Position numbers and translations under genes: made by a program. A stretch of DNA of 64,000 nt from Mobula birostris (Eukaryota). The DNA lies in assembly GCF_030028105.1 (NCBI RefSeq), contig NC_092383.1, positions 28,659,796 to 28,723,795 on the forward strand, in the 5' to 3' direction. The notes beneath the pieces are model-generated. The model did no database searches. It saw only the letters and a program-made list of their open reading frames with translations, and was not told the DNA's origin. Below, piece by piece: positions 2,701 to 63,951 of the stretch. The stretch's first letter is position 1. Each line of letters starts with the position of its first letter.

Positions 2701-5700
2701 ATTTTTAAAAAAATAAATATTTTGTAGTATTTAAAAATAATATCCTGTAGTATTTCACTGACAGTCCAGTTCTGTGAGCTGCCATGTTTCAGTTATCCCT
2801 GCTCCATCTGGTTCTTTTTGAGAGATTAAAACGTGACGTATCTCATGGAAAATGTTGATAGATTTTATACATCACCTGGTGTATTTTGCTTTCAGAGTCC
2901 CAGAGGCCGTGAAAATACCAGTGTCTGAGTGAATCTGAGTGATAACAAATCAACTGATGGAACAAGTTCTATACCCTGATCAAAACCAGATTGTGAACTG
3001 AAAGCAAATGCACTACTCTCTACTAAATTAACAAAACCTCTACACTATGGGGTGTCCAGACCTTTGCTCTTCAATGGCTCTATTGATGTGCACAGACATC
3101 TTAAGCACCAGATCTGGATGGATAATGTGTGCCACATCACTGACACTGTCTATTGTGAGGTTTCAGGTCACTGCATGTTACTTTCCATCCATTGAAAACC
3201 TATCAAGATTTGTCTCAGGATGTAGGATGTAAAAGGAAAAACTTCTATTATAGATGCAAATAAGAAAGGGTGTCTACTCTCAGTGCATACTCTGAAAATT
3301 ACCTCATTAAAGTCATGCCCCATGTCCCAATAACATGCATTTATCTCAACCAGCTCACAGTAGTAAACTTTGAAGATCTGACTTGGATCTATCCAGCAAA
3401 AGGATTAACTATAACTGCTTCCAGGCCCATGGTTTGCAGCAAACAATATATGTAAATAAAAGCAGAGATATACTGGGTTATTTAGGCTTTACTGACTAAA
3501 TTACCATAGGCCACAGACAGTCCTGGATTCAATTGGAAACTCTCCAATTTGGCTACTGTTTTAAATTGCATTGAAATCAGTATAATGGATAGCCAATACA
3601 ATTGTATCATTTTGCAATTACTCTCCCAACACTCCCAACCACTATCCATCATCCACTTTCTCTTGAGTTCAAAAATGATCTTCAAAGGTCTGTTTCAGTT
3701 TGTTTTTCCCTCTCTGTCTTTGACAGTCTTTAGGAGATCTTTACACCTACTTTTATGGCCCCACAATATTATTCACTTGATCATCAACATCTGCTTGCAG
3801 TTTTGAGAAAATGTAGTGCACTAACTTTGCTTCGATTTACTGCATCACAATTCATCCAGTTGACTTCATTCCCCAGTATACAGCTGGAGGTAATACTCTG
3901 CTGTTTTTACTTTCTTCCTGGTGGTTCCTATAACATCATTGCAAAGTCAAGGAGTGCTTGCTTTTTGAATTTTAGTTGGAAAGCCTGGGCAACTTTCCAG
4001 CTGCCTCGAGCCAGAAACGGCTTCAGATTCCCTTGCCTCCTCAGTAGTCCACCATCTGCAAAATCCTGGGTGCAACAGCCACATCCCAAACTAATAGCCC
4101 TCATCAGTTATCCATCTTTGCTCTTAATTAAACGTAGCAGAAAATGTTACTAGTACAGGCGTATACTCATAGGAATTCTCACAGAGAATATCTTTCCAAA
4201 AGCTCTGCATAGTTAAAATAAGCCTTTCAGTGCAGTCATTCTCAACTCCCAGTTGTTGCTGTGACCCCACTCACATTGAAGCTTAGGCACTAAAGTGCAG
4301 AAGACCATTGAGCTGATCAAGTCAACCACAGCTCTCTGTAGAGCAATCCAGTCAATCCCATACACAATTCTTTATCCTCAACCCTGTAAGGTAATTTCTC
4401 ACAAGCGTCTATCCTCTTCCCCCTTGTATAGCCTGATTGCTTTTGTGTCAGCTCATTTGCAGGCAGAGAAAATCAGATTATAACTATCCTTTACCTAAAA
4501 AAAACACCTCTTCTTCACATCCTTTGGTTTCTTGTGATTTGCTTTTTGAATTATTTTTGTTCCCAGATCATTTCTGAACTGTATTCGATCGATTGCAAGA
4601 ATGGGGCAAATGTGCACACAGCCAGTTGATTGCACAGTGAATCAATTGGGCCTCTACATGTGGAATGCTTCTTTCTTTTTGCATGGCCTTCTGGGAGCGC
4701 ATATTTTAGACTTAGCAGGTCCAGTTTATTAGCTCCACAATGTAAGTTGCACCATGTAGACTGTGGCAAACGTGATTCAGTTAAAATATTTAATGCTGCT
4801 ACTCCATTGTTATTCTTGCTCTGCACGTGCATAACTTCAATATCCATGAACAGGAATAACTTCTTTCTATGTAATCTCAATATCTATTTCTATTAAATCT
4901 CTGCTCAACTATCTTTACTCTGAGGAGAATGACACCATCTTCTCTAGTCAAAGATTACAGTTAAAATCCCTCAGCCCTGAACTCTTTTCTGCACACTGCA
5001 CATGACCTTCGCATACTTCCTAACGTGTGCTGACCAGAACCCAAAACTCCAGTTATGACTTAACCAGAGTTTCACAAAGTTTCCAAATAACATTTCTGTT
5101 TTTGTCCCTCCTCAAAAAGGCAATAATGAATCAAATAGTTGTTCAGGGCAAACTTGTAGTTTTCAGATTATTACTACTTTTGATTAATTTCCTGTGTTCA
5201 TAAAATACTCTAGTTTATTAACTGAAATTAAATTCCCTAACCATCGTGGTGAGATTCAAATCAAGTTCCTATAGTTATTCTAAGCCTTGGGAACTTCTGC
5301 ATCATTGGAGTGCTAGGTGACTCTGGTAGTACAAATTGTGTTCACAGCTGTTCCACAGCACAAAGAGATGTAGAAATAGACGCAAGGCAACTTGGACTAG
5401 TTTGTACGAGCAACTTCATCCCAAATTAAGCAGATTTTAATTTGCATTAAGAAGGGTGAACCCTCAAATAGAAACATAGAAACGAAAATAGGTGCAGGAG
5501 TAGGCTATTCGGCCCTTTGAGCCTACACCGCCATTCAGTATGATCATGGCCGATCATCCAACTCAGAACCCTGTACCTGCCTTCCCTCCATGCCCCCTGA
5601 TCCCTTTAGCCACAAGGGCCATATCTAACTCCCTCTTAAATATAGCCAGTGAACTGGCCTCAACTGTTTCCTGTGGCAGAGAATTCCACAGATTCACCAC

Positions 5701-6291
5701 TCTCTGTGTGAAGAAGTTTTTCCTAATCTTGGTCCTAAAAGACTTCCCCTTTATCCTGAAACTGTGACCCCTTGTTCTGGACTTCCCCAGTATTGGGAAC
5801 AATCTTCCTGCATCTAGCCTGTCCAATCCCTTTAGGATTTTATGCATTTCAATAAGATCTCCCCTCAATCTTCTAAATTCCAACGAGTATAAGCCTAGTC
5901 GATCCAGTCTTTCATCATATGAAAGTCCTGCCATCCCAGGAATCAATCTGGTGAAACTTCTTTGTACTCCCTCTATGGCAAGAATGTCTCTCCTCAGATT
6001 AGGGGACCAAAACTGCACACAGTACTCCAGGTGTGGTCTAACCAAGGCCTTGTAGAACTGCAGTAGTACCTCCCTGCTCCTGTACTCGAATTCTCTCGCT
6101 ATGAATGCCAGCATACCATTTGCCTTTTTCACCGCCTGCTGTACCTGCATGCCCACTTTTAATGACTGGTGTATAATGACACACAGGTCTTGTTGCATCT
6201 CCCCTTTTCATAATCGGCCACCATTCAGATAATACACATAAAAGTTGCTGGTGAACGCAGCAGGCCAGGCAGCATCTCTAGGAAGAGGTGC

Positions 6292-6327
6292 AGTCGACAT
6301 TTCAGGCCAAGACCCTTCGTCAGGACT
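6292..6327 (-). ncRNA. Minimal hammerhead ribozyme (left-arm copy)
   Basis: Minus strand AGUC-CUGACGA-AGGGUCUUGGCCU-GAAAU-GUC-GACU; one C>U change in stem III relative to the right arm. Confidence 0.75.
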
Positions 6328-6623
6328 AACTGAAGGAAGAGTGAGTAAGGGATTTGAAAGTTGGAGGGGGAGGGGGAGATCCAAAATAATAGGAGAAGAC
6401 AGGAGGGGGAGGGATGGAGCCAAGAGCTGGACAGGTGATAGGCAAAAGGGATACGAGAGGATCATGGAACAGGAGGTCCGGGAAGAAAGACGGGGGGGGG
6501 GGGTAGACCCAGAGGATGGGCAAGGGGTATATTCAGAGGGACAGAGGGAGAAAAAGGAGAGTGACAGAAAGAATGTGTGTATAAAAATAAGTAACAGATG
6601 GGGTACGAGGGGGAGGTGGGGCA

Positions 6624-7173
6624 TTAGCGGAAGTTAGAGAAGTCGATGTTCATGCCATCAGGTTGGAGGCTACCCAGACGGAATATAAGGTGTTGTTCCT
6701 CCAACCTGAGTGTGGCTTCATCTTTACAGTAGAGGAGGCTGTGGATAGACATGTCAGAATGGGAATGGAATGTGGAATTAAAATGTGTGGCCACTGGGAG
6801 ATCCTGCTTTCTCTGGCGGACAGAGCGTAGGTGTTCAGCAAAGTGGTCTCCCAGTCTGCGTCGGGTCTTGCCAATATATAAAAGGCCACATCGGGAGCAC
6901 CGGACGCAGTATATCACCCCAGCCGACTCACAGGTGAAGTGTTGCCTCACCTGGAAGGACTGTTTGGGGCCCTGAATGGTGGTAAGGGAGGAAGTGTAAG
7001 GGCATGTGTAGCACTTGTTCCGCTTACACGGATAAGTGCCAGGAGGGAGATCAGTGGAGAGGGATGGGGGGGGACGAATGGACAAGGGAGTTGCATAGGG
7101 AGCGATCCCTGCGGAATGCAGAGAGTGGGGGGAAGGAAAGATGTGCTTAGTGGTGGGATCCCGTTGGAGGTGG
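6624..7173 (-). pseudogene. GIY-YIG endonuclease C-terminal fragment of PLE (left arm)
   Basis: Translated ORF contains the CxxxxCxxC linker, GVIY...YIG motif and EEQHLIFRLGSLQPDGMN C-terminus; no RT or start. Confidence 0.88.
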
Positions 7174-7175
7174 CC

Positions 7176-7532
7176 ACCATTCAGGGCCCCAAACGGTCCT
7201 TCCAGGTGAGGCAACACTTGACCTGTGAGTCGGCTGGGGTGATATACTGCGTCCGGTGCTCCCGATGTGGCCTTTTATATATTGGCGAGACCCGACGCAG
7301 ACTGGGAGACCGCTTTGCTGAACACCTATGCTCTGTCCGCCAGAGAAAGCAGGATCTCTCAGTGGCCACACATTTTAATTCCACATCCCATTCCCATTCT
7401 GACATGTCTATCCACGGCCTCCTCTACTGTAAAGATGAAGCCACACTCAGATTGGAGGAACAACACCTTATATTCCGTCTGGGTAGCCTCCAACCTGATG
7501 GCATGAACATCGACTTCTCTAACTTCCGCTAA
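7176..7532 (+). pseudogene. GIY-YIG endonuclease C-terminal fragment of PLE (right arm)
   Basis: TIQGPKRSFQVRQHLTCESAGVIYCVRCSRCGLLYIGETRRRLGDRFAEHL...NFR*, near-identical to the left arm. Confidence 0.88.
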
Positions 7533-7825
7533 TGCCCCACTTCCCCCTCGTACCCCATCTGTTACTTATTTTTATACACACATTCTTTCTCTCTCTCTCT
7601 CCTTTTTCTCCCTCTGTCCCTCTGAATATACCCCTTGCCCATCCTCTGGGTCCCCCCCCTTGCCTTTCTTCCCGGACCTCCTGTCCCTTGATCCTCTCTT
7701 ATCCCTTTTGCCTATCACCTGTCCAGCTCTTGGCTCCATCCCTCCCCCTCCTGTCTTCTCCTATCATTTTGGATCTCCCCCTCCCCGTCCAACTTTCAAA
7801 TCCCTTACTCACTCTTCCTTCAGTT

Positions 7826-7860
7826 AGTCCTGATGAAGGTCTCGGCCTGAAACGTCGACT
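7826..7860 (+). ncRNA. Minimal type I hammerhead ribozyme in PLE 3' repeat
   Basis: AGUC-CUGAUGA-AGGUCUCGGCCU-GAAAC-GUC-GACU: intact core boxes, stem II AGG/CCU, palindromic ACGU stem III, stem I AGUC/GACU. Predicted cleavage after C7856. Confidence 0.85.
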
Positions 7861-8337
7861 GCACCTCTTCCTAGAGATGCTGCCTGGCCTGCTGCGTTCA
7901 CCAGTAACTTTTATGTGTGTTGCTTGAATTTCCAGCATCTGCAGAATTCCTGTTGTTTACCATTCAGATAATAATCTGTTTTCCTGTTTTTGCCACCAAA
8001 GTGGATAACCTCACACTTATCCACATTAAATTGCATCTGCCATGAATTTGCCCACTCACCTAACCTATCCAAGTCACCCTGCATCCTCTTAGCATCCTCC
8101 TCACAGCTAACACTGCCGCCCAGCTTCGTGTCATCCACAAACTTGGAGATGCTGCATTTAATTCCCTTATCTAAGTCATTAATACATATTGTAAACAACT
8201 GGGGTCCCAGCACTGAGCCTTGCGGTACCCCACTAGTCACCGCCTGCCGTTCTGAATCCAAATCCAAAGATTTCATCTTGTCTTTGGATTCCTATCTGTA
8301 ATCTGTTCAAGCACGTCTCCCTCAGTACACCATTGTC

Positions 8338-8823
8338 AGAACCAGACTCAGATTTAATATTATCGGCATATGCCGTGAAATTTGTTGTGTTTGTAACAGC
8401 AGTACAATGCAATACATAATAATGAAAAAAATGAATTACAGAGAGTATATATGTGTTAAATAGTTAAATTAAATACGTAGCACAAAAATAGAAGTAAACA
8501 GGTAGTGAGGTACCTGGATTCAATGGATTCAATATCCATTCAGAAATTAGATGACAGGGGGGACGAAGCTGTTCCTGAATTATTGAATGTGTGCCTTCAA
8601 ACTCCTGTATCCACTCCCTGACATTAGCATTGACAGTAAGGCATGACCTGGGTGATGAGGGCTCTTAATGATGGATGCCACCTTTTGAAGTCATTGCTCC
8701 TTGAAGATGATCTAAACACTACAGATGCTATTGCCTTTGACGGAGCTGACTAAGTTTACAACTCTCTGCAGCTTATTTCAATCCAATGCAGTAGCCACCC
8801 CCCCCCCATACCACACAGTTATG
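8338..8823 (-). mobile_element. Rex1/Babar-type LINE 3' fragment
   Basis: Short-repeat tail at the left end and GAAGCTGTTCCTGAA...CTCCTGTA..CCTGA block shared with the other Rex-like copies in the window. Confidence 0.6.
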
Positions 8824-11262: not shown

Positions 11263-12631
11263 GTTTTTCCTTCTCAAGCAAAATGTATTGAATTCACACA
11301 GAATGATTCTGTCAGCACATGATCTGGAACACAGATTTTGCAAAGGATGGGGCAAAAGAGAAAGTGTCAGTTTGTTTAGCATTAGACAGCTAGGAATTTC
11401 CTTTGAGCAAGTAACAGACTATTGGAGCAAGGAATGTTGTGCAATGGATGAATGTGTATGTGAAATTATACATTGATTTTAATTAACTGAGAATTATAGC
11501 ATTTCTCAGCCTTACAATACACAATCCCATCCCTGAAATTGGAAATAAGCCTTGGCCACAGCTCTGGCTGAGTGAAATACACATTGCAGAATATACAAAT
11601 GTTTATATTAACTTGAGAACAGTCCTGTAAACCATTGGGCAGACACTTATAAAGCTGAAAATGGATATAGATCCAGTGCAGAGATACACTGCCAAACTTA
11701 TTTGACTGCCAGCTGCTGGAAGGGCAGCTGTCTACTAAATGGAAGCTTGTTGTGTGGTAATAAAAAAAAGTCAAACAAGATCTGTTGGAAATCTGACACC
11801 AAGAAAGTCAAGCCACGCATGACAGATCAAGGAAGAGGGAAACTGGCTGACTTCTCAAGGAGGTAAAAGGATTGCAGCCAAAACTTTTCATTTACAGATT
11901 CTGCCTGATCAGTTTGTTCAGGTGGGGCTGAGTGAAACAGGCTATGTTAAATGCCTACTGTATATCTAACACATATATATTCATGTAAGGTATCACTGGA
12001 GAGTGAAATAAACCAGTTGTGCACAGTAAACCAGCAATTCTTTGTGTCTTCTTGCCTTTATACACACTGAAAAACTTAGCTTTGAACTGAGGGACGCAAG
12101 CAGTAGTGCATATATTCATAAATCTTTTGATGCAAAGGATACAAAGGTTATGGGATCATTTCAGTTTTAAACGCTTGGAAATTGCGGAGAACTACAAAAT
12201 TGGAATTGGAAGTCAGGTGAATTGTTAGAGAGATATTGTCCTGAGGGAGAATGTGACTCGCCCCTACATCTTGCCATCCCTTTGGACTTTATGACAAATT
12301 GGTCGATGATATTTAACTAGTGACTGAATGAAACCAAAATTATTAAATATGCAGAACCTCATATATGAGCTTGCATGTAAAATTGCAACACCTGTAGAGA
12401 TGGTATCAAAGAAAGCTTAAAGATGTGTCCAGCCCAAGGCCTATTGTCTTCAACCAGTCCCACATATGTTGAAGAATCAAATGGAAGAACACTTAGATAT
12501 GTTGGAAAGTAAAAGAGAAGCAAGCCAAAATGAGAAAGCAAAATGGAAATATCTAACTGTTTAAAATGGGTTACATGATGATTACAAGCTAACTCTGAAC
12601 CACACAGTTAATAACAAACAGTATCTATTAT

Positions 12632-12881
12632 AAACACCAGAAAGTCTGCAGGTGCTGGAAACCCAAAAAGCAACACACACAAAATGCTGGAGGAAGTCAG
12701 CAGGTCAGGCAGCATCTGTGGAAGTGAATAAACAGTTGATGTTTTGGGTCGAGACCATTCTTCAGGATTGTCGACATTTCAGGCTGAGAGAACGGTTTCA
12801 GCCCAAAACGTCGACTGTTTTTTTCATTTCCATAGATGCTGCCTGACCTACTGAGTTCCTCCAGCATTTTCTGTATGTTGC
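12632..12881. mobile_element. Palindromic 250-bp non-autonomous PLE derivative (two 3' ends back-to-back)
   Basis: Arms CAAAATGCTGGAGGAAGTCAGCAGGTCAGGCAGCATCT / AGATGCTGCCTGACCTACTGAGTTCCTCCAGCATTTT, hammerhead remnants in the centre, and a degenerate 15-bp TSD (12617-12631 vs 12882-12896, 12/15 identical). Confidence 0.8.
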
Positions 12882-12920
12882 AGCAGTATTTATTGTCTTT
12901 TTCATTGGTCGCATATGCAT

Positions 12921-13170
12921 AGTTAGCAGGAGCTAAAGTTTTCACCAGATAAATTTGTCTCATACCAGCAATATTCAACAGTCAATGTGTACAAGGAGTT
13001 CTACTCCTACACAAAACATCACCAACGATCATTCAAGCTAAGTAATATATACAGTTAAAAGGAGTTAAAGTTTTCCCAGAGAAATCTGTCACATACCAGC
13101 AATATTCAGTAATCAATGCATACGAGGGTCTTTACTCCTACACAAGATATCAACTAAGATCTTTCAAGTT
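12921..13170 (+). repeat. Diverged tandem duplication, period ~132 bp
   Basis: AGGAG(C/T)TAAAGTTTTC..CAGA.AAAT.TGTC.CATACCAGCAATATTCA...TACTCCTACACAA occurs starting at 12921 and at 13053. Confidence 0.8.
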
Positions 13171-14951
13171 ATCATGGTCAAAATAAAACAATATATGGAT
13201 CTCTGTTTAGGTAATCAAGATGAAGTTCTAATAGCCACTGGTACTAAATTATTTAGGCTGGCTACAAAAACATGATGTAAAGCTCAAAGGAAGCATGAAT
13301 AAATTTGTTTATCTTGGGTAAGACATCACTGAATCACAACTAGTCAAAGAAAAGGGGAAAGAAAATGAGAGGAGACCTGCAGACATTGCAGAACATAGGT
13401 CATTCTTAGCAGAAGAACTATAATAGATTTTTGTCAAACCTTGCAACAATACTGATGATATTTCAACCATTACTGAACAAAGACAACAAATGGAATTGGC
13501 CAAGAACAACAAACACCATTTGGCCTATGAAATGAGTCTGGGAAAAGAAATATTCATATTGAAACTGCCATGTGGAGATTCAAATTATGGATTGGGTCTA
13601 TATATATATATATATATACAGTCACGTAACAAATGATGGCCAACAAAGATTAATGCATTTGTTTCATATACATTGAGAACACATCAGTGTAATGTTCTAG
13701 TTGAAAAGGAGAAATTAGAAAATATATTTAGACTGATAAATTTTATTCAGTTTCTGTTCCACAGGGTTTTTATATTGGTCACAAGTTATAAGCATGTGTT
13801 CACACTTCTTCCTGTTGAAAGCAAGACCTACAATGGGTGTGTCAAGAATGGAAAAGGCATTCTCTTTTCTCAATCTGTTATGTGATGAACATAAAAGCTC
13901 AGAATGAAATGGCATTACATATGTGTTGTCAAGGTCGCCATACAGGAATTCAAACATAAGGAGTGAAAGCAAGATCATCACATTGAAAACAGCAGATGAT
14001 GATTTCATAGTTACAACAATGCAGACTAGTAAGGCTGCAGGAAAATACACCCTAACAGAAGTACACACAATCATACTGAATAAGGCAGAACTCTAAATGG
14101 AAATTCAAATTTGTTCTATTATTGATATTATACTGTATGTTGTCAACATAACAAAGATATACTAAATGGGAACACTGAGCTTCCATACTAAGTATAGTAA
14201 GAGGACAAATTTAAGAAAAACTTCCAGTTATTTGTTCCATTCTGGTGAGATTTGAGAGAAATTGCCAGAAATTTTGCTTGCTTATTGATAAGGATGTTGA
14301 AATTGTTATGTATAAATGCCAAGGTTTCAGAGCCAAGTTAGTGAAGACACATTTGAGGAAATGCTGATAATGGCCAAATCGGCTTTTTAGATTGTGAAAG
14401 TGACTAATAATCTAATCATACAAGTTCATGTTCAAGTTCACTGTCATGGGCATGCATACCCACGGTATAAAAACCATGAAAATATGCCTTCTGCAGCAGC
14501 GCATGGTACATTACAAACATAACAAACAAAAATTACATCATCTTAAATTAACATAAATTATACATAACTTAAATGACAAAATAAATGAAAAGCAGCATAC
14601 TGATATTCATCCAAATTGAGGGAAATGTAGTCCAAGGAAGTATTAGGATGGAGTTGGGGTTACTATTCATAGGTACTCATAATGAATCAATAGGAATCAT
14701 GTTGAGTCTGGTATAAAGTGTACAAGCATCTCAGAACAGTGGTATTGAGATCTTTGTACACCTTCCATAGCTAACCAGGCAAAATAGTCTTTGAATATTA
14801 TAAAGTTTTGAAATTTTGAAACATTAAACTAATTCAAAGGAAGATGTGGGAGTCCGTGAATATGGGTCTGACTTTGTGTTTACTTTTAGCGAGGTGTGCA
14901 CATATCGCATGGTACCATGATGCAGTGTGCAATTAACCTATGTTACATATC

Positions 14952-16665: not shown

Positions 16666-17326
16666 CCAACACAAGAGAAAATCTGCAGATGTTGCAAATC
16701 CAAAGCACACATAGTTATTGTTGCATCTACCAAGCCACAATCTCAAGACTTCACTCCTTGAAGTCTTACATCATTGCTTCTTTATTACCTTACATTGGTC
16801 ATGATCATCTCTAATAAATATTTCCCTCATTTGTAATTTTTGAGTTTACATCTTTTTGCAACTACTTGAGCTTTTAGTAAGGATGCAGGATAAATGCAAG
16901 TTGAAGTCTGTAAGTACCAGTTACACACTGAAGCTGAAATTAGAAATTCAAAGCAGTGAGATGTTTATGTAAAACATTAGTCTAGATAGTACACAACAAA
17001 AGTGCATGGTAAAATCAAAATCATGCTGCAGAAATCAATAATTATGACTACATTAATTTAATCATCTGTATGTCTGGTAAGCATCTTTACATACAGAATA
17101 TTCTGTCATGACAGAATATGTCACTTTGGTAGTTAGGAGTGTACCCTTCAGGGTCCTACCTGTTACATTCAGTTTTACATTCCACAGGACTTCACCATTT
17201 AATATTTCCAGGAGAGACCTCTATTACTGCAATTTACTGAAGGCTTTTAAAGAGTTGATATATTCCTACTTGTAAAAAAGGCATCTTAAAATCAACATAT
17301 TTTATGTCACAGAAGATGATTGCAGT

Positions 17327-28454: not shown

Positions 28455-28850
28455 CCACGAAGACCGAGGGGGGCACAAATTTGACTGGGTATCAGTGAAA
28501 GTCATGGTGCAGGAAAACACATGGCATGCAAGAGAGTTCCTAGAAGCGTGGTTTTCCACAAACAATTCTGTAAGCAGACATGTGGACCTCAATTCTATTT
28601 ACAAATCAATGCAGGCAAAATTCCAGACAACAACGTACAGAGTTACCACACAACCAATCAGAGACGGGACCTCTCCCTGCAACACAATTGAGTTTCCATA
28701 ATGATGACCAGTCAGTTGATTGATAAATATATAAAGGTCAAGCATTCGGAGGACGTACCACAAATGAACAATGCCCTGATGATGTCTCCTCATATGGTGA
28801 CGAAACGTTTGCCCATAGATTGCCAATATCAGAGAACAACTCAACCCAAT
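28455..28850 (+). mobile_element. 3' fragment of a second Penelope-like family (Penelope/Poseidon-type GIY-YIG end)
   Basis: Reading HKFDW...HAREFLEAWFSTNNSVSRHVDLNSIY, typical of a PLE endonuclease C-terminus, followed by a hammerhead core. Confidence 0.7.
28772..28813 (+). ncRNA. Hammerhead ribozyme core (degenerate stem I)
   Basis: CUGAUGA (28776-28782), stem II GUC...GAC, GAAAC-GUU; the flanking stem I pairing is poor. Confidence 0.6.
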
Positions 28851-28998
28851 CATGGGAAAGGCTTTGGGAGTAAATCCCGAGGAAAAATCTGGAACTATGG
28901 TGATGAAATGTTTGCCCATAGATTGCCAATATCAGAGAACAACTCAACCCAATCATGGGAAAGGCTTTGGGAGTAAATCCCGAGGAAAAATCTGGAAC
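28793..28998 (+). repeat. Tandem duplication, 2 x 103 bp
   Basis: 28793-28895 and 28896-28998 are identical by eye except for two CG>TG changes. Confidence 0.95.
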
Positions 28999-29603
28999 TG
29001 GAGTTCTTAAGTTCAGTTTAATACTGACTGGTAGATCATACAATGCCACTGGCGCCAAACTATATTGGTCTCTGACATTCCTTTGGACTCATCAGCTGTA
29101 TGGGGAGGGAGAGTCTGCTGCATAGGCAACAGCTTGCTCTGTACTACCCAGGCTTGCATACCAGTTTGCATTTGTAGACAGCTAGGACAACTAGTTGCCC
29201 CCAACCAAAGGAGGGCCTCAAAGCTCAGACTACATTTGGAGTATTGTGAACAGTTCTGAAACTCATGTCTAAGAAAGGATGTGCTGGTGTTGGAGAGGGT
29301 CCAGAGGAGATTCATGAGGATGATCCTGGGAATGTGTTACATACCCCGTGGGTATCTTGTGACTGTCTTATGAGCATGATGTGATGGTCTTGTGGAAGTC
29401 ACATAACGTAATTTTCCCGCCAGTTTGAGGTCACATGATTCCCTCAATTCCATAGATTTCATGCCAGCTTCCTTAGTAAATACAGACACAAAAAAACTAT
29501 TTAAGATCTCCCCCATTTCCTTTGGTTCCACACAAAGCCGACCACTCTGATCTTCAAGAGGACTAACTTTATCCCTTACAATCCTTTTGCTCTTAATATA
29601 CTT

Positions 29604-45443: not shown

Positions 45444-45560
45444 CCACTATCTCTTCTTTCAGATAGTCCTGACAAAGGGTCTCGGCCCAAAATGTTGACT
45501 GTACCTCTTCCTATAGATGCTGCCTGGTCTGTTGCGTTCACCAGCAATTTTTATGTGTAT
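45444..45560 (+). mobile_element. 117-bp PLE 3' fragment with mutated hammerhead, inside the Gypsy 3' LTR
   Basis: Homologous to ~7805-7918; perfect 15-bp TSD CCCCAGCTCCTGTGT (45429-45443 / 45561-45575). Confidence 0.88.
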
Positions 45561-47287: not shown

Positions 47288-49501
47288 TTTGAAGGTATGA
47301 GACGTGAATTAGCTAAGATAGACTGGCAAATGACATTTAAAGGGTTGACAGTGGAAATGCAATGGCAAGCATTTAAGGATCGCATGGATGAACTACAACA
47401 ATTGTTCATCCAAGTTTGGCAAAAGAATAAATCAAGGAAGGTGGTGCACCTGTGGCTGACAAGGGAAATTAGGGATAGTATCAATTCCAAAGAAGAAGCA
47501 CACAAATTAGCCAGAAAAAGTGGCTCACCTGAGGACTAGGAGAAATTCAGAGTCCAGCGGAGGAGGACAAAGGGCTTAAGTAGGAAGGAGAAAAAAGATT
47601 ATGAGAGAAAACTGGCAGGGAACATAAAAACTGACTGTAAAAGCTTTTATAGATATGTGAAAAGAAAAAGATTGTTTAAGACAAATGTAGGTCCCCTACA
47701 GACAAAAACAGGTGAATTGATTATGGGGAGCAAGGACATGGCAGACCAATTGAATAACTACTTTGGTTCTGTCTTCACTAAGGAGGACATAAATAATCTT
47801 CCGGAAATAGTAGGGGACAGAGGGTCCAGTGAGATGGAGGAACTGAGCGAAATACATGTTAGTAGGGAAGTGGTGTTAGATAAATTGAAGGGATTAAAGG
47901 CAGATAAATCCCCAGGGCCAGATGGTCTGCATCCCAGAGTGCTTAAGGAAGTAAATAGCCCAAGAAATAGTGGATGCATTAGTGATAATTTTTCAAAACA
48001 CTTTAGATTCTGGACTAGTTCCTGAGGATTGGAGGGTGGCTAATGTAATCCCACTTTTTAAAAAAGGAGAGAGAAAGAAACCGGGGAATTATAGACCGGT
48101 TAGCATAACATCAGTGGTGGGGAAAATGCTAGAGTTAGTTATCAAAGATGTGATAACAGCACATTTGGAAAGCAGTGAAATCATCGGACAAAGTCAGCAT
48201 GGATTTGTGAAAGAATATCATGCCTGACGAATCTCATGGAATTTTTTGAGGATGTAACCAGTAGAGTGGATAGGGGAGAACCAGTGGATGTGGTATATTT
48301 GGATTTTCAAAAGGCTTTTGACAAGGTCCCACACAGGAGATTAGTGTGCAAACTTAAAGCACACAGTATTGGGGGTAAGGTATTGATGTGGATAGAGAAT
48401 TGGTTGGCAGACAGGAAACAAAGAGTGGGAATAAACGGGACCTTTTCAGAACGGCAGGCAGTGACTAGTGGGATACCGCAAGGCTCAGTGCTGGGACCCC
48501 AGTTGTTTACAATATATATTAATGACGTAGACGAGGGAATTAAATGCAGCATCTCCAAGTTTGCGGATGACACAAAGCTGGGCGGCAGTGTTAGCTGTGA
48601 GGAGGATGCTAAGAGGATGCAGGATGACTTGGATAGGTTAGGTGAGTGGGCAAATTCATGGCAGATGCAATTTAATGTAGATAAATGTGAGGTTATCCAC
48701 TTAGGTGGCAAAAACAGGAAAACAGATTATTATCCGAATGGTGGCCGATTAGGAAAAAGGGAGGTGCAACGAGACCTGTGTGTCATTATACACCAGTCAT
48801 TTAAAGTGGGCATGCAGGTACAGCAGGCGGTGAAAAAGGCGAATGGTATGCTGGCATTCATAGCAAGAGGATTCGAGTACAGGAGCAGGGAGGTACTATT
48901 GCAGTTGTACAAGGCCTTGATGAGACCACACCTGGAGTATTGTGTGCAGTTTTGGTCCCTTAATCCGAGGAAAGACATCCTTGCCATAGAGGGAGTACAA
49001 AGAAGGTTCACCAGATTGATTCCTGGGATGGCAGGACTTTCATATGTTGAAGTACTGGATCAACTAGGCTTATACTCGTTGGAATTTAGAAGATTGAGGG
49101 GGGATCTTATTGAAACGTATAAAATCCTAAAGGGATTGGACAGGCTAGATGCAGGACGATTGTTCCCAATATTGGGGAAGTCCAGAACGAGGGGTCACAG
49201 TCTGAGGATAAAGGGAAAGCCTTCTAGGACCGAGATTAGGAAAAACTTCTTCACACAGAGAGTGGTGAATCTGTGGAATTCTCTGAAACAGGAAACAGTT
49301 GAGGCCAGTTCATTGGCTATATTTAAGAGGAAGTTAGATATGGCCCTTGTGGCTAAAAGGATCAGGGGGTATGGAGGGAAGGCCGGTACAGGGTTCTGAG
49401 TTGGATGATCAGCCATGATCATACTGAATGGCGGTGCAGGCTCGAGGGGCCGAATGGCCTACTCCTGCACCTATTTTCTATGTTTCTATGTTTCTATGTT
49501 T
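47288..49501 (+). mobile_element. 5'-truncated young CR1 LINE
   Basis: ORF2 fragments 47290-48227, RT ORF 48236-49399, 3' UTR and (TTCTATGT)n tail. Confidence 0.95.
48236..49399 (+). pseudogene. CR1 ORF2 reverse transcriptase C-terminal 387 aa
   Basis: YLDFQKAFDKV, GIPQGSVLGPQLF, FADDTKL, RPHLEYCVQFW; upstream frameshifts. Confidence 0.93.
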
Positions 49502-50257: not shown

Positions 50258-50698
50258 TAACAACACACACAAATAAGCCAGTAAATATGGATGAGAAGAA
50301 GCAGTCAAAATTTCGGGCCAAGACCCTTTATCAGGACTGGAAAGTAGAGGGACTGAAGCAAGAATAAGAAGGTGGAATGAATGAATGAAGTACAAGCTGG
50401 CAGGTGGTGGGGGAAGGTAGGTGGGTGGGAGAGGGGCTATTAAGTAAGAAGTTGGGAGGTTAGTGGAAGAGGTAAAGGGCTGCAGAAGAAGAAGGAATCT
50501 GATAGGAGAGAGCAGTAGTCTATGGAAGAAAGGAAAGGAGGAGGGAAAACAGAAGGAGGTGATGGGCAGAAAACGAGAACAGAATGGGGAATGGAACAAG
50601 AGATAAAGAGAGGAGGGAGAGAGATTACTGTAAGTTTTAAAAACTGATGTTCATGACTTCAGGTTGGAGGCTAACCAGGTGGAATATAAGTTGTTCCT
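50258..50698 (-). mobile_element. Old PLE 3' fragment with degenerate hammerhead (50302-50339)
   Basis: Homologous to 6235-6700 (GATGTTCATG..TCAGGTTGGAGGCTA.CCAG); minus strand CAGTCCTGATAAAGGGTCTTGGCCCGAAATTTTGACTG. Confidence 0.75.
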
Positions 50699-59899: not shown

Positions 59900-62800
59900 G
59901 AACCCAAAGGGGTCCAATATCCTAGCAGGCAGGTTTAATAGAGCCGTTAGGGAGGGTTTAAACTAATTTGGCAGGGGGATGGGAACCGGAGTGATAGGGC
60001 TGCAGAAACGTGCAACAAAGATGATAGAAGGGACAGGTAGGAGATGAGGTATAATCACAGCCAGTGGGATGAGTTAAAGGGCAATAGAGGCATACTGCAG
60101 TTAAAACAGAAAGCAACAAGTACTGGACTGAAAGTGTTGTATTTGAATGCACGCAGCCTAAGAAATAAAATGGACGATCTTGAAATTCAGCTATAGATTG
60201 GCAGGTATGATGTTGTGGCCATCTCTGAAACTTGGCTAAAGGATGGCTGCCATTGGGAGCTGAACGTTCAAGGATATACAGTGTATCAGGAAGATAGGTT
60301 AGTAGGCAGAGGGGGTAGTGTGGCCCTGTGTATAAGAAATAATATTAAATCATGAGAAAGGGATAACATAGGATTGCAAGGTGTCTCCATGGGTTGAGTT
60401 AAGAAATGGCAAGGGTAAAAGGACTCTAATGGCAGTCGTATACAGGCCTCCAAACAGCAGCCGGGATGTGGGTTACAAATTACAGCAGGAGATAGAAAAG
60501 GCGTGACAGAAGGGCAATGTCGTGATAATCATTAGAAATTTTAACATGAAAGGAGATTGGGAAAACCAGGCCAGTACTGGACCTCAAGAGAGAGGATTTG
60601 TAGAATGTCGAAGGGATGGCTTTTTAAAACAGCTTGTTGTTGAGTCCACTAGGGGATCTGTGCTGGATTGGGTGTTCAGCAATGATTTGCAGGTGATAAT
60701 AGAGCTTAAGGTTAAGGAGCCATTAGGGAACAGTGATCACAATATGATCGCGTTCACTTTGAAATTTGAGAAGGAGAAACTAAATTCCAATGTGCTGGTA
60801 TTTCAGTGGAATAAAGGAAATTACAACGGCATGAGAGGGGAACTGGCCAAGGTTGACTGGAAAGGCACACTAGCAGGAAGGACAGCAGAGCAACAATGGC
60901 TGGAACTTCTGCAAAAAATGAGGGAAGTGCAAGACAAATATGTTCCAAATAAGAAGAAATTTCTGAATGGAAGAAGAACACTACTGTGGCTGACAAGTGA
61001 AGTCAGAGCCAAAGTAAAAGCAAGAGAGAGTGCATACAAGGAATCCAAAGCTAGTGGGAAGACAGAGGTTTGGGAAGCTTTTAAAAACTTGCAGAAGGAA
61101 ACCAAGAAGGTCATTAGGAAGGAAAAGATGAATTATGAAAAGAAGCTGGTGACTAGTATCAAAGAAGATACTAGAAGTTTTTTTAAGTATATAAAGGGTA
61201 AAAGAGAGTGAGGGCAGATATATAACCAATAAAAATGATGCTGGAGATATTGTAATAAGAGATGCAGAGATGGCAGAGGAACTGAATTTGTATTTTGCAT
61301 CAGTCTTCACAGTGGCAGACACCTGCAGTATACCAGACATTCAAGAGTGTCAGGGAAGTGAAGTATGTGCAGTGAAAATTATGACTGAGAAGGTGCTCAA
61401 GAAACTTAATGGTCTGAGAGTGGATAAATCTCCTGGACCTGATGGAATGTACCTCGGGTTCTGAAGGAAGTAGCTGGAGAGATTGCAGAGGCATTAACAA
61501 TGATCTTTCAAGAATCGATAGATTCTGGCATTGTACCAGATGACTGGAAAATTGCAAATGTTACTCCAGTATTTAAGAATGGTGGGAGGCAGTAGAAAGG
61601 AAACTATAAACCTGTTAGCCTGATATCAGTAGTTGGGAAGTTGTTGGAATCAATTGTTAGGGCTGAGATTACGGAGTACCTGGAGGCACATGACAAGATA
61701 GGCCAAAGCCAGCATGGTTTCCTGAAACGAAAATCCAGCTCGACTAACCTAATGCAGTTTTTTGAGGAAATTACAAGCAGAGTAGACAAAGGAGATGCAG
61801 TAGATATGGTGTATTTGGATTTTCAAAAGGCCTTTGGCAAGGTGCCGCACATGAGGCTGCTTAGCAAGATAAGAGCCCATGGAATTACAGGGGAGTTACT
61901 AACATGGGTGGAGCATTGGTTGATTGGCAGGAAACAGAGAGTAGGAATAAAGGGATCCTATTCTGGCTGGCTGCCGGTTACCAGTGGAGTTCCACAGGGT
62001 CAGTGTTGGGACTGCTGCTTTTTACGATGTATGTCAATGACTTGGACTATGGGATTAATGGATTTGTGGCTAAATTTGCCGATGATACAAAGATAGGTGG
62101 TGGAGTGGGTAGTGTTGAGGAAACAGAGAGCCTGCAGAGAGACTTCGATAGTTTAGGGGAATGAGCAAAGAAGTGGCAAATGAAATACAATGTTGGAAAT
62201 TGTCTGGTCATGTACTTTGGTGGAAGAAATAAACCGGTAGAATATTATTCAGATGGGGTGAGAATTCAAAATGCAGAGATGCAAAGGGATTTGGGAGTCC
62301 TTGTGCAGGATACTCTAAAGGTTAACCTCCAGATTGAGTTGGTGGTGAAGAAGGCAAATGCAATGTTGGCATTCATTTCTAGAGGAGTAGAATATAAGAG
62401 CAGGGATGTGATGTTGAGACTCTATAAGGCACTTGTGAGACCACACTTGGAGTATTGTGTGCAGTTTTGGGCTCCTTATTTTACATAGATCATAGAACAT
62501 AGAATAGTACAGCACAGTACAGGGCCTTCGGCCCATAATGTTGTGCTGACCCTCAAACCCTGCCTTCCATATAAGCCCCCACCTTAGATTCCTCCATATA
62601 CCTGTCTAGTAGTCTCTTAAACTTCACTAGTGTATCTGCCTCCACCACTGACTCAGGCAGTGCATTCCATGCACCGACCACTCTCTGAGTAAAAAACCTT
62701 CCTCTAATATCCCCCTTGAACTTCCCACCCCTTACATTAAAGCCATGTCCTCTTGTATTGAGCAGTGGTGTCCTGGGGAAGAGGCGCTGGCTATCCACTC

Positions 62801-63951
62801 TATCTATTCCTCTTATTATCTTGTACACTTCTATCATGTCTCCTCTCATCCTCCTTCTCTCCAAAGAGTAAAGCCCTAGCTCCCTTAATCTCTGATCATA
62901 ATGCATACTTTCTAAACCTGGCAGCATCCTGGTAAATCTCCTTTGTACCCTTTCCAATGCTTCCACATCCTTCCTATAGTAAGGTGACCAGAACTGGACA
63001 CAATACTCCAAGTGTGGCCTAACCAGAGTTTTATAGAGCTGCATCATTACATCACGACTCTTAAACTCTACCCCTCGACTTATGAAAGCTAACACCCCAT
63101 AAGCTTTCTTAACTACCCTATCCACCTGTGAGGCAAATTTCAGGGATCTGTGGACATGTGTCCCGAGATCCCTCTGCTCCTCCACACTACCAAGTATCCT
63201 GCCATTTACTCCGTACTCTGCCTTGGAGTTTGTCCTTCAAAAGTGTACAACCTCACACTTCTCCGTGTTGAACTCCATCTGCCACTTCTCAGCCCACTTC
63301 TGCATCCTATCAATGTCTCTCTGCAATCTTTGACAATCCTCTACACTATCTACAACACCACCAACCTTTGTGTCATCTGCAAACTTGCCAACCCACCCTT
63401 CTACCCCCACATCCAGGTCGTTAATAAAAAGGATATACTGACATTGGAGAGGGTTCAGAGAAGATTCACGAGAATGATTCCAGGAATGAAAGGGTTGCCA
63501 TACGAGAAAGGTCTGGCTGCTCTTGGGCTGTATTCCCTGGTGTTCAGGAGAATGAGGGGTGATCTCATAGAAACATTCCAAATGTTAAAAGGCCTGAACA
63601 GATTAGATACGGCAAAGTTATTTCCCATGGTAGGGGAGTCTAGGACAAGAGGGCACAACTTCAGGATTGAAGGACGTCCATTTAGAACAGAGATGCAGAG
63701 AAATTACTTTAGTCAGAGGGTGATAAATCTGTGGAATTTCTTGCCATGAGGGGCTGTGAAGGCCAAGTCATTGGGTGCATTTAAGGCAGAGATAGATAGG
63801 TTCTTGATTAGCCAGGGCATCAAAGGGTATGGCAAGAAGGTAGGGGATTGGAGATGACTGGAAGAATTGGATCAGCCCATGAGTTAATGGTCAAGCAGAC
63901 TTGATGGGCCAAATGGCCTACTTCTGCTCCTATATCTTATGGTCTTATGAT
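59900..63951 (+). mobile_element. Degenerate CR1 (ORF1 end, APE, RT, 3' UTR) split by an antisense CR1
   Basis: APE (LGNSDHN), RT (YLDFQKAF, KFADDTK, RPHLEYCVQFW) to ~62483; resumes KDILTLERVQRRF at ~63428; (TCTTATGG)n tail. Confidence 0.92.
62484..63427 (-). mobile_element. 5'-truncated CR1 nested antisense in CR1
   Basis: (CATAGAA)n tail at left; ORF 62553-63185(-) plus FINDLD..KFADDTKVGG upstream. Confidence 0.92.

Follow-up and report, generated by a model that had tools for sequence, protein, structure and literature searches.

We found that positions 6220–7973 of the window (the whole stretch of 64,000 nucleotides analysed) hold a head-to-head pair of Penelope-like element (PLE) copies, which is an ordinary PLE insertion unit inside one 15-bp target-site duplication (TSD) with one informative joint. 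The unit was likely made in one concerted event, with reverse transcription primed from both cut strands of the target. The unit, its joint and its host LINE comprise the following features.

5468–6234, minus strand: 3′ part of the host LINE, 93.5% identical to the paralog at 48728–49497, with an open frame at 5563–6207
6216–6228, plus strand: target 13-mer repeated at the joint, with only 2 occurrences in the window
6220–6234, plus strand: TSD at the left copy, ACCATTCAGATAATA, identical to 7959–7973 and single in the empty paralog
6235–7174, minus strand: left PLE copy, 940 nt, 5′-truncated, without a tail, holding the RT-EN linker with CX4CxxC, GIY-YIG, the 3′ region and a minimal hammerhead
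6292–6327, minus strand: minimal type-I hammerhead in the left copy, with an intact core, a G-U pair closing helix II and U at position 15.2 (by eye)
6983–7173, minus strand: unpaired upstream part of the left copy, aligning with the linker of ray PLE proteins
7172–7184, plus strand: central joint, identical to target 6216–6228, made of 3 nt of left-copy end and 11 nt of right-copy start with 1 in common
7174–7958, plus strand: right PLE copy, 785 nt, 5′-truncated, tailed, holding a GIY-YIG frame, the 3′ region and a minimal hammerhead
7826–7860, plus strand: minimal hammerhead of the right copy, one G missing from helix II (by eye)
7918–7958, plus strand: one-sided tail of 40–41 nt, on the right copy only
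7959–7973, plus strand: TSD at the right copy, ACCATTCAGATAATA, identical to 6220–6234
7959–8256, minus strand: 5′-truncated upstream part of the host LINE with its RT domain, 95.6% identical to the paralog at 48445–48742 (RVT_1, E 2e-13)

A self-comparison of the window showed that 6235–6982 is the reverse complement of 7174–7917 (95.7% over 750 columns). This upholds the inverted repeat of the original prediction, with the end of the right arm moved from 7918 to 7917; base 7918 pairs with 6234, the last base of the TSD. In a global alignment, the arms differed by 24 substitutions over 742 aligned bases (18 transitions, 9 CpG-type) and by 3 gaps. The 3′ ends of both copies face outward, and one perfect 15-bp TSD encloses the whole unit as had been proposed, with an exact match between 6220–6234 and 7959–7973. 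The "spacer" of about 190 bp once placed between the arms (6983–7173, 191 nt) is upstream sequence of the left copy, and the unit consists of a minus-strand copy of 940 nt (6235–7174) and a plus-strand copy of 785 nt (7174–7958) with 1 base in common. The layout of 6220–7973 is typical for PLEs and no oddity: the one in print, a truncated copy with an adjoining inverted truncated copy, a one-sided tail of 30–40 nt and a single TSD, is matched here, including the inverted 5′-truncated copy that adjoins the other within one TSD in EN+ PLEs.

On its minus strand, 6983–7173 encodes the linker that precedes the endonuclease. It contains a CX4CxxC motif and aligns with ray proteins assigned to Mobula hypostoma and Hypanus sabinus (11 matches among 334 candidates). 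A CX2-5CxxC motif in the RT-EN linker defines the Neptune or Nematis clade (PMC8557442), and the CX4CxxC of the left copy has this form. Contigs from 4 of 24 runs were compared with 6983–8800, a stretch that begins to the right of the left junction. None of the 24 was listed as an RNA run, which carries no information on expression. In all 4 runs, family contigs (14, 19, 6 and 7 among the matches listed) joined 6985 to 7174 on opposite strands, a link that is the normal continuity of the PLE family. Immediately to either side of 7174, the family contigs departed from the reference, indicating that the left copy ends and the right copy starts at this base. The family is very abundant in the run contigs, with at least 418,561 pieces, 930 joints and 4,725 loose ends.

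Each arm had been described as holding the C-terminus of a GIY-YIG domain; the domain is present, but each arm holds the whole of it rather than the C-terminus alone. The Pfam score for GIY-YIG, the C-terminal endonuclease of EN+ PLEs, lay above the cut-off of 22.6 bits on the right (26.1) and below it on the left (20.5). The endonuclease of the left copy is interrupted by a stop at 6624–6626, and the open GIY-YIG frame of the right copy runs from 7176 to 7532. In EN+ PLEs the RT lies upstream in the same ORF, and both copies here are truncated downstream of it. Close ray homologues (66–85% identity) carry an upstream YIDD-type motif, which we take to be that of the RT, and Pfam named an RT domain in 0 of the 4 scanned. 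The unit is a decaying relic without an RT.

The nesting of the PLE unit within a LINE, also part of the original prediction, was borne out, as both flanks match one paralog and RVT_1 was found. RVT_1 matches were obtained for 2 of the 3 pieces scanned (paralog ORF, E 4e-23; right flank, E 2e-13), with none for the left flank, and the host is, to judge from these matches, a non-LTR retroelement. We assume that it is of CR1 type from its C-terminal motifs and tail repeat. The LINE reading frame resumes across the PLE insert. The paralogous LINE at 48445–49495 carries the TSD 15-mer once, with one A/G difference, and so stands in for the empty site. The host and its paralog differ at 59 of 1,048 positions (5.6%), and the arms differ significantly less (3.2%, interval 2.1–4.8%; Fisher p 0.02); lower divergence is what nesting requires.

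Three further observations concern LINE sequence in the window. A 624-nt contig of organism D matches only 148 letters, at 8259–8406, and runs off the reference to the left, a hint that this organism lacks the host LINE at the orthologous site. An organism B contig over 8229–8552 has 28 letters on the LINE side, the threshold for bridging being 31. An old inverted pair of LINE fragments lies at 62067–63390 (66% over 416 nt).

When the 24 substitutions between the arms were polarised by CpG, 9 fell to the right arm, 6 to the left arm and 9 to neither (binomial p 0.61). The mutation load on the arms thus showed no detectable difference (6 vs 9) in a test that is weak and biased, because the variant table holds right-arm letters only and at least 207 further rows lie outside the count. 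Among the rows listed, the right arm carried 7 letters against the family majority where the left arm had the majority letter. At the polymorphic sites 7275, 7511 and 7862, both arms have the same letter, the rarer one in run X1, which fits arms that share one subfamily. X1 may derive from the same source as the window.

The tail is confined to the right copy. Contigs leaving the reference at 7958 into diverse sequence numbered 202 in run X1 and 253 in run X5, and this marks 7958 as a family end point. EN+ PLE units have a tail of 30–40 bp on one end; here it measures 40–41 nt and stands on the right only. Both primings had been thought to start from the RNA 3′ end, and the two copy ends point rather to two sites 40–41 nt apart, the known tail signature. 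Reading 6229–6234 as a mutated tail of the left copy was rejected, since 3 of the 6 nt would have to have changed, each to exactly the target letter. Set in register against the tail RNA, the top-strand end forms 8 Watson-Crick and 3 wobble pairs over 12 positions. Among the 127,976 12-mers of the window, 619 reach 8 Watson-Crick pairs to the tail and 25 of these also reach 11 paired positions; the energy of the tail-binding duplex was equalled by 64% of 5,000 random 15-mers, and the PLE copy at 45451 showed no comparable target-tail pairing. Noticed post hoc and energetically unremarkable, this pairing carries little weight. Elsewhere in the window, a 41-nt stretch (16671–16711) matches the tail alone (78%), with no adjoining hammerhead region detected, and is possibly a solo tail insertion.

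The central joint was probably set on the target, since its 13 nt are identical to target sequence, for which the chance over 30 registers is about 5e-7. For the 11-mer by itself, a random truncation point gives a chance of about 2.5e-5. Of 20,000 random 45-mers, 1.2% had an 11-mer in common with the element somewhere, so some targets appear to offer such a match, and the truncation here seems to have fallen exactly on one. The two cDNAs had been supposed to be simply end-joined at their 5′ truncations; the joint instead copies 13 nt of the target.

A single event could have proceeded as follows. The GIY-YIG endonuclease would nick both strands 15 nt apart. The bottom-strand end would prime at the start site at the end of the tail and yield the right copy, and the top-strand end would prime at the family's second start site, 40–41 nt upstream, and yield the left copy. 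Because both copies span the same RNA segment, the templates would be a pair of RNAs, two units within a tandem transcript, or a single RNA copied twice. The first cDNA would stop at the 11-nt target match and anneal there, and the second would end on a 3-nt match left of the bottom nick, the target 13-mer being re-copied into the joint.

A single event is the most likely origin given the one perfect TSD, the empty paralog, the low arm divergence, the letters shared by the arms, the recurring ends and the data on the lizard PLE protein PAc. The layout also fits dual priming, in which two RNA templates are used at two nicks in one event. The proposal that both strands were primed in one event fits the one TSD, arms of similar age and the in vitro data. 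The two starts at the RNA 3′ end do not hold, and the cDNAs do not look simply end-joined. Against a single event stand a nested second insertion, indistinguishable from it by sequence, the priming of PAc without homology, and the palindrome at the joint; weighing both sides, we still regard one event as having a good probability.

The rival that survives best is a pair of insertions, which we consider improbable. The left copy would have come first, with a TSD of 16–19 bp (start 6216–6219, end 6234), and the right copy would then have entered the right-hand TSD with a 9-bp duplication (7176–7184 and 7959–7967) and a 5′ end joined by microhomology. Each base of the locus follows from this account, the 13-nt repeat among them, and a previously cut site could be preferred; TSDs of 15–17 bp are known in this PLE family, and microhomology joining of the 5′ end has been described for a PLE (PMC3846280). 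However, it needs a second strike within a few bases, head-to-head and with a canonical one-sided tail, to produce a layout that is common for single PLE events (cf. the second case at 12631–12881), and the mutation loads of the two arms show no detectable difference (6 vs 9).

A palindrome formed beforehand, by self-priming or fold-back at the joint or by inheritance from a source copy, and then integrated whole is less probable again. The joint does contain a perfect 10-bp palindrome (7169–7178), the sole one of that size among the 1,705 positions of the unit, and palindromes, the feature that gave rise to the self-priming proposal, have been reported at inverted PLE junctions (PMC3846280). 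The target 13-mer itself begins with a self-complementary 4-mer, so with a joint set on the target the palindrome needs only 3 more chance pairs (about 1 in 64), whereas with a joint set by the palindrome the 13-mer goes unexplained, its identity to the target being left as a coincidence of about 5e-7. In addition, the mirrored part amounts to 5 bp only, beyond which the arms differ by 191 nt, and the family contigs part from the reference both left and right of 7174, which means that the joint is no widespread inherited form.

A mirrored read or chimera, as an artefact of assembly or library, is very improbable. The matches listed included no read or contig across the locus, and complex PLE units are known to trouble assemblies (PMC8557442), but the arms show 24 base differences and 3 gaps with private changes on both, the flanks are unmirrored, the reading frame of the LINE is taken up again, the TSD copies match exactly and the one-sided tail stops at a family end point. 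Twin priming of the L1 type was rejected, as both arms cover the same 744-nt segment in full overlap.

Each arm had been credited with a hammerhead. Minimal hammerheads are characterised by the core, an extra base before helix II and a short helix III (PMC4209133), and by eye all of these are present in both arms. However, helix II is damaged in both, an Rfam scan of the whole window at the gathering score gave 0 matches, hammerheads included, and free folding did not clearly return the ribozyme fold. Compared with the right-copy hammerhead, family contigs have an additional G behind 7837. The base that closes helix II (6304 and 7848) is T on the sense strand of either arm, where the copy at 45451 has C; the T is either a shared source variant or the result of parallel CpG decay.

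Folding of the unit gave 729 and 725 inter-arm pairs for the two strands, with perfect helices of up to 166 and 124 bp, and read-through of 6220–7973 is predicted to yield a long hairpin. The expected double-stranded read-through product thus agrees with the folding, but the sense hammerhead at its distal end would not be free: around the sense hammerhead, 36 of 38 and 37 of 39 positions pair outside the motif in the two hairpin folds. Ribozyme cleavage from a read-through transcript would be unlikely on these folds, because the hammerhead positions are paired with the other arm and so sequestered. An active distal hammerhead in the read-through hairpin was rejected, as the motif is paired up in the fold.

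Two other PLE-type units in the window are flanked by TSDs.

12631–12881: older PLE-type mini head-to-head unit, arms 85% alike over 93 nt, 13-bp TSD with 2 mismatches
45451–45558, plus strand: short tail-less PLE 3′ end of 108 nt, TSD of 15 bp perfect or 17 bp with one mismatch

In the mini unit, the minus copy ends in a tail of about 39 nt and the plus copy has none; a short extra piece of hammerhead region lies at the centre. The copy at 45451–45558 starts just before the hammerhead, stops at the very base where the tail-less arm of the main unit also stops, and has about 7 unexplained bases on its 5′ side. Among the TSD-flanked PLE-type units examined in the 64 kb, 2 of 3 are head-to-head. 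A decayed minus-strand PLE fragment with the endonuclease end and hammerhead region lies at 50301–50695. Two tandem duplications were also seen, one of about 104 nt (28793–28999, 98%) and one of about 130 nt (12913–13171, 79%), the latter just right of the mini unit. Searches for further PLE copies with flanks gave 0 exact matches in metagenome contigs and 0 in viral contigs, and a protein-led metagenome scan for PLE copies confirmed 0 of 123 pattern matches.

The locus alone adds little, because its layout, its tail and the dsRNA consequence are already in print. The origin of PLE inverted units is unsettled, with self-priming proposed in a 2013 paper and two-strand priming, its later steps left open, in a 2024 paper. 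We tentatively suggest, as a doubtful generalisation, that dual priming from the two start sites bounding the tail generally produces PLE head-to-head units where they land, and that the target can splint the ends of the two cDNAs. If this were true, the locus would be a rare fossil of the joining step, and the splint model would replace the published self-priming account and predict a genome-wide excess of target homology at PLE inversion joints. With a very abundant and fairly young PLE family in ray genomes, comparing joints with targets statistically would be cheap, and the locus indicates which features to count. In a mainly open-access literature, none of the papers we found extended dual or twin priming to PLE inverted units, and none described a joint splinted by the target.

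Among published systems, the typical Penelope structure is described as an ORF with pLTRs next to an inverted pLTR, with a single TSD and a tail carried by one of the inverted pLTRs; head-to-head is given as the most frequent PLE arrangement, with self-priming proposed for an antisense template (PMC3846280). EN+ PLE units with an inverted truncated copy, a tail and one TSD also appear in the legend to Fig. 2 of PMC8557442. The unit at 6220–7973 resembles canonical EN+ PLE units in its truncated copy inverted head-to-head, its flanking inverted repeats, its 30–40-bp type of tail at one end, its single TSD and the minimal hammerhead motif in the terminal repeat. In contrast to them, both of its copies are heavily truncated, a direct (tandem) pLTR is absent, the inverted part is long, at about 745 bp, and 13 nt of the target recur at the joint.

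Inverted-repeat Penelope copies of Drosophila yield siRNA (PMC3681739); they are likewise rearranged with long inverted repeats, and they are a source of dsRNA, whereas here the hairpin is predicted only. For L1, "dual priming" with priming at both nicks, two RNAs and outward 3′ ends has been no more than postulated, and it could not be distinguished there from twin priming (PMC2837659); both ends of an L1 break have been seen carrying cDNA (bioRxiv 10.1101/2024.12.14.628481). Twin and dual priming of L1 share with the PLE unit the priming at both nicks, cDNAs that meet internally and one TSD, but twin priming uses two different parts of one RNA and so leaves no long duplicated arm, unlike the unit here.

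The lizard PLE protein PAc (Poseidon of Anolis) cleaves and extends both strands in vitro, and two adjacent RT start sites bound the tail; it primes without homology (PMC11167929). The main text of that paper does not derive inverted units from the two-strand activity. The cutting and extension of both strands and the two start sites flanking the tail are what the single-event reading of 6220–7973 has in common with PAc, which differs in belonging to the Poseidon clade and in preferring AT-rich sites, whereas the family studied here has a linker of Neptune/Nematis type.
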